64,000 nucleotides of DNA, from contig JBIJDH010000004.1 of NCBI GenBank assembly GCA_044344255.1, forward strand, positions 160,001-224,000. The letters are read 5' to 3'. A program made the position numbers and the translations under genes. Each line of letters starts with the position of its first letter. The stretch's first letter is position 1. Shown here piece by piece: positions 51,984-64,000 of the stretch. Source of the DNA: Myxococcota bacterium. Its GTDB lineage: Bacteria; Myxococcota_A; UBA796; UBA2385. Below the pieces are notes generated by a model, which saw only the letters and a list, made by a program, of their open reading frames with translations, did no database searches and was not told the origin of the DNA.

Positions 51984-53057
51984 TCAGGTGCGCGCGCGGA
52001 GGGCGTCGTCGTACTGTCTTCGTCGCGGGTGGGCGTCGGCGCCGAGCTGCGACGACAAGGCCGACAGGGCGCGCCGCTGCTCGGCGTTGAGCTCGGCGGG
52101 CACCTCGACGTTGACCTTGATGTGCAGATCGCCCGTCCGTCGACCGTCCAAGTCGGGGAGGCCTCGCCCGCTCAGGCGGAACACCTTGCCCGACGGCGTG
52201 CCGGCCGGGATGCGGATCGTGGTGCGGCCCTCGAGCGTGGGGACCACGAGATCTGTGCCCATCGCGGCCTCGGCGAAGAGCAGGGGCACGTCACAGAAGA
52301 GGTCAGCGCCGCGGCGGCGAAACAGTTCGTGATCGGTCACATTGACGAGCACGTAGAGGTCACCCGGGGGGCCGCCGCCGCGGGGCACGTTGCCCTTCCC
52401 GCGGAGCTTTAGCTTCTGACCGGTGGCCACCCCCGGGGGGACACGGATCTTCAGCCGCTCCAGGTTCTCTCGGGTGCCGGAGCCGCTGCAGGTGCCGCAC
52501 TTCTTGATCATCCGCCAGCCTCGGCCGTCGCAGCGCGGGCAGTCCGCGCGGAAGATGCGGCGGGTGGCTGACTTCCCGGTGCCGGTGCAGGCCTCACAGG
52601 CGGCGCGCCCCTCGTCGGGATCGGCGCCGGTGCCCTCACACTTCCGACAGGCGGACTGCCGGCGGAGGTCGATGGTCCGCTCGGCCCCCTGCACCACGTC
52701 TTCGAGGCTCACCGAGAGGGTGTACTTGAGGTCGTCGCCGCGGTCGTCGGGGCGCTTCTTACGAAACAAGCCGGAGAGGGCGTCGGAGACGAAGTCGTTG
52801 AGGTCGTCCGGCGAGGGCGGCCGGCCGTCGGGGCGGAAGAAGGGGCCCAGGCGGTCGTATCGCGTGCGCTGCTCGGGATCGGAGAGGACCTTGTAGGCTT
52901 CGGCCACCTCTCGGAAACGGTCATCCGCCTCGGGATCATCCGGCCGACGGTCCGGATGGAATTCCATCGCCAGGCCTCGAAAGGCCTTCTTGATCTCGTC
53001 CGGAGCGGCCGAGCGGGGGACACCGAGGACGGCGTAGTAGTCACGTCGGGAGGGCAA
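51984..53057 (-). CDS. dnaJ: DnaJ chaperone
   Basis: DYYAVLGV, HPD, four CxxCxGxG motifs, GDLY C-terminal domains; short G/F region. Confidence 0.92.
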   Translation of the reverse strand: MPSRRDYYAVLGVPRSAAPDEIKKAFRGLAMEFHPDRRPDDPEADDRFREVAEAYKVLSDPEQRTRYDRLGPFFRPDGRPPSPDDLNDFVSDALSGLFRKKRPDDRGDDLKYTLSVSLEDVVQGAERTIDLRRQSACRKCEGTGADPDEGRAACEACTGTGKSATRRIFRADCPRCDGRGWRMIKKCGTCSGSGTRENLERLKIRVPPGVATGQKLKLRGKGNVPRGGGPPGDLYVLVNVTDHELFRRRGADLFCDVPLLFAEAAMGTDLVVPTLEGRTTIRIPAGTPSGKVFRLSGRGLPDLDGRRTGDLHIKVNVEVPAELNAEQRRALSALSSQLGADAHPRRRQYDDALRART

Positions 53058-53088
53058 TCGGGGCCTCCGTTATGCCGGGCGGCAGCGG

Positions 53089-54978
<1,890 letters not shown>

Positions 54979-55012
54979 GTCTCCGTTTGAGAGGGACCCG
55001 TTTGTACCACGG

Positions 55013-56074
55013 TCAGGGCAGCGCCGATCCAGCAGGGTCCGCGTCGATGTTGTCAGGCACCTGTGAAGAGGGCGCGGGCGGGGCCGTCGCCGAGGGGGCA
55101 GGCGCCAGCGCGGGGGCGGCCACGCTCACTCGGGCCGCGCGCAGCAGGCGCCCGTGCAGGGTGTAGCCGGCGGAGAGCTCGGCCTGGATGGTGCCTTCGG
55201 GGTGATCGGCGGACGGCACCCGCTGCATCGCCTCATGGAACTCCGGCTGGAACGGGGTGCCGGGGGTGGCGAGGATGCGCTGGGCCCCCGTGCGCTCGAT
55301 GGTGCGGCGGAGCTGCTCGGCGATCATCTGCACACCCTGGAGCACGCGGGCGGCGTCGGAGGATGCGTGCTGCAGCGCCATCTGGAGGTTGTCCTGGACG
55401 GGGAAGAGCTCGAGCAAGAGCGGGCTGGCGGCGAAGCGGCGGGCCTCCTCGACCTCGGACTTCCGGCGGTCGTTGAGGCGCTTGACGTCGGCCATCGAGC
55501 GTTCGAGGGCCTCCCGGGCGTTCTTGGCGGCGTCTTCGGCGGCGGCGCGAGCGTCCTGGGCGAGGCGGGCGGCGTGCTCCGCGCGCTGGATGCGATCGTT
55601 GGCGCGCAGCAGGATGGCGCCGGCTCGTTTCCGCTCGCCGATCTCGGCCTGCAGGGAGGCCTCGAGGGCCTCGATCCGACCCCGGGCTTGTGCGAGCTCG
55701 GCGCGTCCCTCGGCCAGCTCGGCGAGGAGGCCCTGGATGGCCTCCGGCCCGTCGCCTCCGTCCCGCTCGAGCCCGACGACGATGTCGCCGTCGGTCAGGC
55801 CGTCACCCTCGGGGTCGACGACCAGGTCGTCGAGGTCGAATTCGATCGGCGATGTGGCGCGGCTGGGCTCTGCGGCGCGGGGATCGGGGCTGACCGGCTC
55901 TGGGCTGCGGTTCGACCGGCGGGCGTCCACGGCGGCGAGGGCGGCGGCGAGCAGATCGTCACCGCCGGCGATCGACAACATGGGCCCGTCTTCTGAGGGG
56001 GGACGGGTCGAGCCGGTCGGCCGAAACGCGGGGTGGACCTTGACTGCCTTGGCGAGCTCGTTGGACATGGTCAT
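55013..56074 (-). CDS. grpE: GrpE nucleotide exchange factor with long N-terminal extension
   Basis: [38 protein letters not shown]; first gene of grpE-dnaK-dnaJ. Confidence 0.9.
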
Positions 56075-61691: not shown

Positions 61692-62786
61692 ATGTCCGAC
61701 GAACCGACCGCCCTCGAGCTCTTGAAGAAGAAGAAGGTCCCGACCCGCCGGTCGCTCGGGGACGGGCTGGTGGGCAAGGTCGGAGCGCGGGGCTGGCAGC
61801 GGCCGAACGTGGCGGTCAGTGACCGCCTGTTCAAGCATTATCATGTGGTCGATCCCTGGGATCCCGAAGGGAAGCAGGAGAAGGACCCCATCGGCCTCGG
61901 CGACAGCGCGCTCCGGATGGGCGAGCCCAAGCGGGAGGTCGCCCCGCACCTCAAGCCCCCGGAGGTCGGCGGAGGGGCGCTCGGCCCCGGCAAGGCGGCG
62001 GCCAGCCCGGGCGGCAAGCCGTCCGAGGTCGATCCGCTGGCCAAGTGGCGCCGTCCTGCGGTCAAGCCGACCGGCGAGGAGGCGGCGCCCACCCACAAGC
62101 CCGCCGCGGCGCCAGCCGGGGAGGCCGGGGCCCGCCCGCCCTTGCCCACTCCGATCCCGGGTGCGCCGAAGGAGCGGAAGCTCACACCGGGGCTCTTCGA
62201 CGGCTCGAAGAAGCCGGGAGCCAGTGGAGAGTTCGGCGGCAGCAAGGACCGCCCCGCCCTCAAGGGGCCGCTGCCGATGCGCCCCGACGCTCCGCCGGGG
62301 AAGGCCCCGCCGCAGGCCCCGGGGGGCGCTGCGGGGGGAGGCTCGGCCCGGCCCGCGTCGGCGGCCCCCGCCAAGGCGCCGCCGGCCCCCGCCCGCGCGG
62401 TCGGCGCCCCGAACCCGGCCGCTGCCCTGCCCCGCCCGCCGATCGCCCGCCCGGCGGGCGTTGGGGGAGGCGCCAGCGGGGGGCGCGCCGCCGGGCCTGC
62501 GTCGGGGGCCAACACCGGCAGCGGTCGCTTCGGGGCCCGCAATCAAGTGCGGAGCCTGAGCGTCGAGGACGTAGAGCCAGAGATCCGCGAGGTCACGCTC
62601 GCGCCCGTCGGGACCTCGCCCCCTCCGATGAGCGAGTCCGCGTCGGAGGCGCCGGCGCCTGCCAAGGTCGAGCCCGCCAAGGTCATCGATCGGCGGATCC
62701 CCACCGGCCCCATCGGCCTCGACGACATCTTTGGCGGGAGCTCCGAGGGCCGTATCCGGCGCCCCAAGAAGGGGGAGGGGAAGTGA
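61692..62786 (+). CDS. Pro/Ala/Gly-rich largely disordered hypothetical protein
   Basis: Coding-like codon bias; non-repetitive termini (WQRPNVAVSDRLFKHYHVVDPWDP; GLDDIFGG). Confidence 0.65.
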   Translation: MSDEPTALELLKKKKVPTRRSLGDGLVGKVGARGWQRPNVAVSDRLFKHYHVVDPWDPEGKQEKDPIGLGDSALRMGEPKREVAPHLKPPEVGGGALGPGKAAASPGGKPSEVDPLAKWRRPAVKPTGEEAAPTHKPAAAPAGEAGARPPLPTPIPGAPKERKLTPGLFDGSKKPGASGEFGGSKDRPALKGPLPMRPDAPPGKAPPQAPGGAAGGGSARPASAAPAKAPPAPARAVGAPNPAAALPRPPIARPAGVGGGASGGRAAGPASGANTGSGRFGARNQVRSLSVEDVEPEIREVTLAPVGTSPPPMSESASEAPAPAKVEPAKVIDRRIPTGPIGLDDIFGGSSEGRIRRPKKGEGK

Positions 62787-62861
62787 AGCCGTGGTGAAAT
62801 TCGCCCGCGGAGAGCGGAGGTCGAAGGAGTCGGCTACAATGTGCAGATGGAAGGAGTCCTC

Positions 62862-63620
62862 ATGAAGATCCTGACTGCGGTGCGGTCCCCCTCCTCGGCC
62901 TCACGCTTCGCCGCGGTCGGCCTGCTGCTGGTGGCGTGCGGCACCGCGAAGGTGGACATCCAGCTCGGTGACGAGATGGACAGTGATGAAGATGGGCTGT
63001 CCGACGCGGGTGAGATCGACGAGGGCACCGACCCGACCTCCGATGACTCGGACGGCGACACCTGGAGCGACGGCGAAGAGTTCGAGCAGGGCACCGACCC
63101 CCTGAGCGAGCTCGATCACCCGTACACGGGCGGCTGGAAGATCGACAAGGAGTGTCGAAACATGGCGCCCGACACCACGGGGGCCAATGAGGGCGACATC
63201 GCGGCCAACTTCACGTTGGTCGACCAGTACGGTGACAATGTTCGCCTCTATGATTTCTGCAACCACGCGGTGTTGTTGATATCGGCCGCCTTCTGGTGAG
63301 GCAGCTGCGTCTCTGAGGCTCAGGGACTCGAAGAAGAATACCAGGCTCGTAAAGATCGCGGCTTCATCATCCTCAGCATGATCGGGGAAGATCTGACTGG
63401 GGCCGCGCCCACAGCCGAGCAGCTCAAGGTGGACTGGGCTGACAAATACGGCATCACGGCGCCGGTCTTGTCGGACGGTGGCTTCGGCGTCGGGTGGACT
63501 TACATGAGCGGTGGCCTCCCCAGCCAGACGCTCCTCGCTCCTGGCATGGAGATCATCATCAAAGATGGGTACCCCATCTCCGGCGAAGCCATCGACGAAG
63601 TGCTGCCCGTCCCGGAGTGA
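62862..63620 (+). CDS. predicted selenoprotein: lipoprotein with TSP3-like Asp-rich repeats and a TlpA/redoxin domain (UxxC)
   Basis: AAGGAG RBS; LVAC lipobox; DSDEDGLSD..GTDP repeats; NFTLVDQYG..VLLISAAFW-TGA-GSC; the frame stays open after TGA (63297-63299) until 63620. Confidence 0.85.
63309..63327 (+). promoter_or_regulatory. bacterial SECIS-like hairpin
   Basis: GTCTCTGA-GGC-TCAGGGAC: 8-bp stem (one G-U), G-initiated loop, beginning after a 9-nt spacer from the in-frame TGA. Confidence 0.7.
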
Positions 63621-63638
63621 CCCCTCAGGAGAGTTCCC

Positions 63639-64000
63639 TTGCGCAGCGTGCTCTTGTGGCTGGCGATGGCGGGCTTCGGCCCGGTCGCCTCTGCCTCGGA
63701 TGGTCTCTTGTTGTTGCCGCCGGGCCCGATCCTCGCCGATGGCGAGACGGTGACCCGCATTCAGGTCTGGGGCCCCATGATCGGCCCCGACTCGAAGGTG
63801 AAGGCGAAGGGCAGCGGACTGAAGGTCGTCGAGATCAGCGCGGCCCCGGGTCTGCTCACGCTCTCGTTGACCGCCTCCGAACAGACGGCCCCGGCGAACG
63901 CGTCCTTGCACGTGTCCGTGAAGGGGGCGGGAGGTGAGGCGGAGGCTGATCTTGGCCTCTCCCTGGTCCCGCCTCCCGATCAGCCGCTCCCCCTCAGCTT
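63639..64000 (+). CDS. exported protein, possibly Ig-like, truncated by the window edge
   Basis: AGGAG then TTG; MRSVLLWLAMAGFGPVASA signal peptide; ILADGETVTRIQV; open to the end of the window. Confidence 0.6.
   Translation, partial: MRSVLLWLAMAGFGPVASASDGLLLLPPGPILADGETVTRIQVWGPMIGPDSKVKAKGSGLKVVEISAAPGLLTLSLTASEQTAPANASLHVSVKGAGGEAEADLGLSLVPPPDQPLPLS

Follow-up and report, generated by a model that had tools for sequence, protein, structure and literature searches.

The stretch of DNA analysed here (64,000 nucleotides; hereafter the window) raises the question of whether a TGA triplet inside an otherwise continuous reading frame is a stop codon or a site of selenocysteine (Sec) insertion and, if Sec is inserted, what the resulting protein does. 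A first-pass annotation of the sequence had proposed a single hidden selenoprotein of about 252 residues at this position.

A single gene interrupted by TGA

ORFs 62841-63299 and 63378-63620 share one frame and are divided solely by TGA 63297-63299. As that annotation had it, the frame is identical on both sides of the triplet, and translation from ATG 62862 gives 252 residues. The features of the gene and its surroundings are as follows.

62848..62854, + strand: Shine-Dalgarno-like sequence GAAGGAG, 7 nt 5' of ATG 62862; functional role putative
62862..63620, + strand: complete selenoprotein gene, 252 residues; stop codon TGA 63618-63620
62862..62939, + strand: lipoprotein signal peptide ending in the lipobox LVAC (residues 23-26; Cys26 at 62937-62939); lipidation predicted from the sequence
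62979..63101, + strand: two Asp-rich bacterial TSP3 repeats (residues 40-58 and 62-80); Pfam PF18884, 27.3 bits in two stretches
63153..63260, + strand: extra Cys pair, C98 (63153-63155) and C133 (63258-63260, in the motif DFC), identified by conservation
63177..63617, + strand: ResA/TlpA-type thioredoxin-fold (redoxin) domain, from Pfam and fold matches; LP cis-Pro loop at 63513-63524
63297..63299, + strand: in-frame TGA, Sec146, the attacking residue of UGSC, from homologue alignment
63306..63308, + strand: resolving Cys149; Cys at +3 in 86 of 86 Sec forms
63309..63327, + strand: SECIS hairpin, 8-bp stem, GGC triloop starting 17 nt after the UGA; -9.8 kcal/mol
63639..64000, + strand: start of an 863-residue Ig-like (Big_1/invasin D3-like) protein with a probable C-terminal beta-barrel

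The active-site motif of the read-through protein is AFW-U-GSC, U being residue 146. Its Pfam matches to AhpC-TSA (39.4 bits), Redoxin (29.1 bits) and TSP3_bac (27.3 bits) all lie above the cut-off, and the first two run across the TGA; GSHPx is a weak match. Judged by pattern, the protein has the charged n-region, hydrophobic h-region and conserved lipobox Cys of a lipoprotein, this Cys being kept in at least 90% of 59 aligned rows. Neither C98 nor C133 varies in any of 23 rows, both are kept in at least 90% of the 59, and a structural disulfide between them is probable. Binding of Ca2+ is a known property of the TSP3 repeat family, and the two Asp-rich repeats of the window protein probably bind it as well. 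The lipobox and the paired repeats had both been recognised in the first-pass annotation, which had also expected gene callers to split such a gene; two representative proteins, P0047 (136 residues) and P0109 (156 residues), do terminate exactly at the TGA column.

A scan for promoters and terminators returned nothing usable. A second read-through, of the terminal TGA 63618-63620 into the in-frame gene downstream, was considered and rejected: no qualifying hairpin was found, the downstream gene has its own ribosome-binding site and signal peptide, and relatives vary in their stops and gaps. That the downstream TTG start lies six codons beyond the terminal TGA and in its frame (window 63618-63639) was judged a coincidence.

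Homologues carry TGA or Cys at the same column

The first homologue set comprised the 30 best loci from 41 genomes, 29 of which cover the TGA column; the resulting 32 rows hold 19 TGA (window gene included) and 13 Cys codons. An earlier scan for relatives, with a single protein as query, had yielded none among 38 pattern matches, and a closer alignment as query gave the relatives that the single protein missed. In this second scan, of genome contigs, at least 283 relatives were confirmed among at least 598 pattern matches, and the best 80 were kept, giving 88 rows (61 TGA, 27 Cys). An open frame of 95-120 codons lies 3' of the TGA/Cys column in all 88. Leaving out 10 duplicates of the first set, one truncated row and one internal duplicate gave a held-out set of 76 rows, 53 Sec and 23 Cys. 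Twenty further regions, a biased sample chosen mostly for a flagged TGA, contributed 19 TGA, 3 Cys and 1 Asp. After de-duplication the column (125 rows) contains 86 TGA, 38 Cys and 1 Asp, with neither TAA nor TAG, and the second Cys, at +3, is kept in every one of the TGA forms. With TGA or Cys here in the homologues, and the frame open beyond it, the TGA is not a chance occurrence. Sequence identity after the U is 0.38 in Sec rows versus 0.39 in Cys rows. Libraries of representative proteins contain the Cys forms, the Sec forms being visible only as truncations ending at the codon; long TSP3-repeat proteins crowded out part of this search.

Nor is the TGA a sequencing error, since three contigs span the codon unchanged. 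Contigs X10 and X12, from two runs in two studies that were not flagged as a possible source, do so without differences, and the RNA-library contig X15 (spanning 62914-63800) has no change at the TGA and two synonymous differences 3' of it. Contigs X15 and X16 show that the sequence is present in RNA libraries and say nothing of its expression level. Of 21 runs, 15 contain at least half of the words, and these come from lake, river or freshwater metagenomes.

That the TGA is instead a real stop (through nonsense mutation, assembly error or the presence of two genes), or Trp under another genetic code, is very improbable and effectively refuted already: the codon score and GC3 are lower in the first 40 codons after the UGA than before it, but TGA occupies the identical column in 86 homologues, with xxC and about 100 conserved codons after it in every case, independent assemblies agree on it, both X15 differences beyond it are synonymous, and TGA serves as the ordinary stop of the window gene and of many homologues.

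A SECIS hairpin follows the codon

The bacterial SECIS consensus has a loop of 3-9 nt, a stem of 4-16 bp, a spacing of 16-37 nt and an energy of -7.5 kcal/mol or below, with G in the first two loop positions (PMC13188914). The window hairpin falls within it, with a 3-nt loop beginning GG, an 8-bp stem, 17-nt spacing and -9.8 kcal/mol. None of 2000 synonymous resamples matched this hairpin; genome-wide, such a hairpin follows only 2223 of 162,072 TGA triplets. A strict GG-triloop rule was derived from the first homologue set, in which the stem occurs in 15 of 19 Sec and none of 13 Cys rows, and was then applied to the held-out rows, where it was found in 21 of 53 Sec and none of 23 Cys rows. 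A relaxed energy rule, set after the held-out rows had been seen, recovers 41 of 53 Sec and 3 of 23 Cys rows. Across the family the loop sits in several registers, at about 14-17, 20-21, 23-24 and 29 nt. The window hairpin is absent from the minimum-energy fold of the first 60 nt, where only the centroid shows it, and the region after the UGA folds no better than dinucleotide shuffles (z 0.31).

The host genome encodes the Sec machinery and further selenoproteins

The host genome (G000; 8.18 Mb, 71% G+C, 95% complete) contains selA, selB, selD and a tRNA-Sec with anticodon TCA, all above cut-off, which makes the sel set complete; SelD is the Cys form. SelA was found in 39 of 40 relatives, the sole miss being a genome that is 78% complete. 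Six further genes of selenoprotein type with an in-frame TGA were found, a lower bound, since the window gene was overlooked by the first codon-score scan of this genome.

G000:C54:30892, - strand: formate dehydrogenase alpha, in-frame TGA
G000:C51:89297, + strand: SelL-related redox protein, in-frame TGA
G000:C83:183005, - strand: SelW-like protein; TIGR02174 above cut-off
G000:C26:175277, - strand: TUGYCR redoxin lipoprotein; NF053656 above cut-off
G000:C18:120803, + strand: BCP/PrxQ-like selenoprotein (L154) with ATGG-U motif, lipobox and Gly/Asp/Ser linker
G000:C18:62252, - strand: TlpA-like lipoprotein (L155), 631 residues, C-terminal TlpA domain with W-U-P-A-C

A similar hairpin is present at 18 nt in the formate dehydrogenase gene; in the SelL-like gene a GGC triloop lies at 17 nt. 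L154 is a candidate exported Sec-peroxiredoxin. L155 combines beta-propeller-like repeats with an Ig-like/OS_HP2-like segment, and its SECIS, with a GGTC loop, lies at 17 nt; the GOS Prx-like 3 set (PMC2398784) contains fragments that nearly match it. With the window gene the selenoproteins found here number seven, of which four, the window gene among them, have a lipobox at the start when read by eye.

On this computational evidence the gene is almost certainly decoded through the UGA as Sec, and the same evidence shows the insertion to be directed by the GGC-loop hairpin 17 nt downstream, via the host SelB and tRNA-Sec. The proposal of a hidden selenoprotein with its UGA exactly at the attacking Cys of a UxxC motif (W-U-G-S-C) thus stands: the sel genes, the homologue column and the hairpin all favour it, the spanning contigs are free of conflict, and the 3' half shows no decay.

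Fold and proposed function

An AlphaFold2 model (59-row alignment, Cys in place of U) had pLDDT 95 and pTM 0.89, with the repeats and the domain both confident. The matches from Foldseek and profile searches, 20-30% identical, were TlpA-like reductases, among them ResA and the pneumococcal Etrx lipoproteins; the best fold matches were ResA and Etrx2. The thioredoxin fold with N-terminal hairpin, the C/UxxC motif and the cis-Pro loop are all present, in keeping with the TlpA/redoxin fold and later LP of the first-pass annotation. The window protein shares with ResA/TlpA/CcmG and pneumococcal Etrx1/2 (PDB 1st9, 4nmu, 4hqz, 2yp6) its fold (TM 0.80-0.86 over the target), motif position, cis-Pro loop and predicted membrane anchoring; those proteins differ in having Cys rather than Sec and neither TSP3 repeats nor the extra Cys pair. 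No model in NCBIfam 20.0 reaches its cut-off for the window protein; the best, ResA (NF002854), scores 41.3 of 170 bits, and TlpA (NF047696) 12.6 of 230 bits.

The host genome has a single DsbD/ScsB-type transporter, with two DsbD_N domains, an MsrA, on C17, with a lipobox, and three heme-copper oxidase subunit I genes, the last of which point to an oxygen-using cell. Neither the transporter, MsrA nor the Sec-PrxQ is encoded beside the window gene. A precedent for a relay is the Caulobacter ScsB-TlpA-PprX envelope peroxide pathway (PMC3322552). The host has the same cast (DsbD/ScsB-type transporter, exported TlpA-like proteins, exported BCP/PrxQ), but its TlpA-like and PrxQ-like components both carry Sec, and their wiring is putative.

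We favour, with some reservation and largely by analogy, a role as an exported, lipid-anchored selenol/thiol reductase that is fed by DsbD/ScsB through a putative wiring and serves antioxidant and repair enzymes of the cell envelope. The protein would be exported and lipid-anchored at Cys26, facing the periplasm, with the two Asp-rich repeats binding Ca2+ and forming a stalk, and C98 and C133 joined in a structural disulfide. The U146 selenolate would attack a disulfide, or an oxidised Cys/Met-repair enzyme; C149 would resolve the adduct to give a selenenyl-sulfide, which the single DsbD/ScsB-type electron transporter of the host would re-reduce. The most likely clients would be envelope antioxidant enzymes such as the lipoprotein MsrA and the lipoprotein Sec BCP/PrxQ, a proposal drawn from the Caulobacter relay.

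Not every family member would share this chemistry. One or both active-site residues are gone in about 18 of 67 representatives, and a paralogue in the host genome (G000:C31:26251-26820, with DGAT), like several representatives, keeps the fold and the extra Cys pair with the active site lost (e.g. W-D-G-A-T). Since several members have lost these residues, part of the family may work without redox chemistry, which suggests a non-catalytic role for such members.

The downstream gene and a possible folding role

The 863-residue protein encoded downstream has a weak Big_1 match, falls in an Atlas cluster with Invasin_D3/Big_1 and probably ends in a barrel. Its gene begins after a gap of 18 nt and has its own ribosome-binding site. 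Among 27 informative loci, a family redoxin lies directly 5' of the best copy of this gene in 13 (12 Sec, 1 Cys; six family codes). The neighbour accompanies 15 of 48 Sec loci and 3 of 18 Cys loci, and most family members are without it. The window copy contains no Cys, none is conserved across 18 homologues, and the protein is therefore unlikely to be a disulfide client.

These observations bear on the strongest alternative, itself improbable, that the selenoprotein, instead of being a general antioxidant, is a dedicated folding or assembly factor (reductase/isomerase) for the downstream Ig outer-membrane protein, a surface protein, or for the gliding/adhesion machinery next to it. The recurrent placement upstream of the neighbour, the short gap, an RNA-library contig that crosses both genes (which does not by itself show a single transcript), the GltC-like and OMP_myx_plus genes 3-7 kb further on and the occurrence of TSP3 repeats in myxobacterial CglD and MtsD (weak NCBIfam matches) would fit such a role; but the neighbour is without conserved Cys, 14 of its 27 copies have no redoxin upstream, and most redoxins have no such neighbour.

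The Cys-free protein (window 63639-64000; L051:1640-4231) was found in 39 of 41 genomes, with 1-5 copies each, and matches no family above cut-off; it is an uncharacterised surface-protein family of the window gene's lineage. At L051:4279-9401 the Ig protein is followed by a divergent paralogue (three TSP3 repeats, W-C-Y-W-C), with GltC-like, OMP_myx_plus barrel and MIDAS/CglB-like genes of a gliding cluster on the opposite strand. The neighbour gene 3' of the Cys orthologue L021 (G019:C124:21509-22399) appears broken, with four TGA and two pieces, coinciding with the Cys form. Elsewhere in the window, positions 61692-62786 hold a 364-residue Pro/Ala-rich ORF without a Pfam match, of which only the N-terminal 58 residues are conserved, at the syntenic L021, and on the - strand at 51984-56074 lie, in a row, genes which we take from their sequence motifs to encode GrpE-like, DnaK and DnaJ proteins.

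Peroxidase and cytochrome c readings

Somewhat less probable again is that the protein is a Prx/GPx-like peroxidase that reduces peroxides directly with its selenol. AhpC-TSA is its best Pfam match, GSHPx matches weakly, and the GOS paper classes the subfamily as 'Prx-like 3' (PMC2398784); yet the U lies in a UxxC motif at the thioredoxin position, with a cis-Pro loop, and not in TxxU/PxxxTxxC as in the host's own Sec-peroxiredoxin. No Thr occurs three residues before the U (AFW-U-GSC, versus ATGG-U in the C18 protein), and the structural neighbours are ResA/Etrx reductases. A ResA/CcmG-like reductase of apocytochrome c is more doubtful still: ResA is the best match in both sequence and fold, but its model is far under the cut-off (41 versus 170 bits), and the host has a separate, membrane-anchored CcmG-like WCQPC protein beside the cytochrome c assembly genes on C21.

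Distribution and Sec/Cys history

A survey with the domain profile at E<=1e-25, scoring 14 candidates per genome, found matches nearly throughout the same order (34 of 35 genomes), in every other genome of the class (12 of 12) and in 1 of 203 from the rest of the phylum. By record title, the best 80 of at least 283 relatives include 22 myxobacterial and 7 'Deltaproteobacteria' records, the others being assorted and probably mislabelled. Many titles within L052-L131 (Enterobacterales, Rickettsiales, two 'Klebsiella pneumoniae') clash with a high G+C and a myxobacterial gene context, and these records look like mislabelled MAGs. ESM Atlas clusters with the AhpC/TSA, Redoxin and TSP3 architecture are mostly Myxococcota, and the GltC-like and OMP_myx_plus genes downstream are among the signs of a Myxococcota-type lineage. 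Sec paralogues reach their highest count, six, in genome G040; the host genome has one Sec copy besides Cys and inactive paralogues.

Sec/Cys history was read from quick, unrooted trees, which do not give the direction of change. They need 14 Sec/Cys changes, at least five of them forced by strong branches in 125 rows and three in 69 thinned rows, and one common clade for all Sec forms is rejected by an AU test (p 2e-84; LG+G4, no mixture). L021 is syntenic with the window gene on both sides and is the Cys form, in a genome that has selA and another Sec paralogue; the syntenic orthologues L021, L024 and L104 are all Cys, in genomes still making Sec. The synteny of L021, its Cys with selA kept, and the Sec form of 12 of the 13 redoxins upstream of the neighbour together favour Sec-to-Cys reversion within the family. 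Aerobes rarely keep selenoproteins, and such reversion is rare in bacteria (PMC13188914, section 10).

Relation to known selenoprotein families

UxxC selenoproteins of Redoxin, Prx-like and TlpA-like families were catalogued in 2026 (PMC13188914). The GOS 'Prx-like 3' group (pfam08534, UxxC) corresponds to the 'Redoxin family protein' PF08534 UxxC (PMC2398784; PMC13188914, Table 1), whose catalogue representative is HEU0032618.1. The window protein resembles this group in its PF08534/PF00578 redoxin domain with UxxC. One '#Prx-like 3' read in GOS Dataset S1, JCVI_READ_1091139219293, has in common with it the pattern LYDFC...SAAxW-U-GxC...KDRGFII, with 34 of 60 residues identical in a manual count by eye; this read is a single N-terminally truncated fragment in a mixed group dominated by other subfamilies. 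It is the one match to 'YDFC' in the dataset, which has none to 'HDFC' or 'AFWU'.

In the passages covered of the GOS Prx-like 3 and Redoxin-family descriptions we found no lipobox, TSP3 repeats, host lineage, paralogue expansion or Sec/Cys switching, and the text of PMC13188914 does not mention lipoprotein, thrombospondin or Myxococc-. Deep-Sep (PMC12013277) and BSepDB (PMC13326102) were covered by term search only; the BSepDB genome list includes Myxococcota, so these genes may already be entered there under a broader family name. Other selenium lipoproteins, SaoX and SaoC, are described in the Haft preprint. Three NCBIfam families, NF041054 (WAxxUGC_long), NF041046 (UGSC-containing) and NF053656 (redoxin_TUGYCR), are also thioredoxin-fold selenoproteins, and the letters UGSC coincide; none matches the window protein at E<=0.1, and NF053656 matches another gene of the host genome. 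ESM Atlas clusters named 'AhpC/TSA + Redoxin + Bacterial TSP3 repeat' (50-68 members, commonest phylum Myxococcota; query the Cys form P0013, score 0.96-0.97) have the same architecture, but their names are automatic and leave Sec unmentioned.

Literature outside subscription journals yielded no description of an architecture with lipobox, TSP3 repeats and extra Cys pair, and NCBIfam 20.0 no model of it. Nor did we find accounts of the family's confinement to one Myxococcota-type class, of as many as six Sec paralogues in a genome, or of repeated Sec/Cys switching with a shifting SECIS position. The novelty implied by the first-pass annotation therefore holds in part: UxxC redoxin selenoproteins were already catalogued and a fragment of the subfamily was predicted in 2008 (GOS), while the architecture was not found described. 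The UxxC redoxin selenoprotein is a known kind; its exported, repeat-bearing version seems undescribed as a family.

Implications

The UxxC thioredoxin-fold chemistry is not itself new. For annotation, a class-wide family is split at its catalytic residue, so that redox inventories are under-counted. For selenium biology, an oxidase-bearing freshwater bacterium keeps a selenoenzyme that is predicted to be exported. Tentatively, this aerobic class of uncultured water bacteria may have moved much of its selenoproteome to the envelope, with DsbD/ScsB-fed Sec-TlpA lipoproteins (up to six Sec copies per genome) passing electrons to Sec-peroxiredoxin and MsrA lipoproteins, with repeated Sec-to-Cys loss and with SECIS elements re-invented at several registers in the coding helix. 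Orthologues that occur at one locus as Sec and as Cys make the question of why Sec is used rather than Cys testable on matched pairs and, if this wider picture is true, the family would offer a natural paired Sec/Cys set with which to test why selenium is kept.
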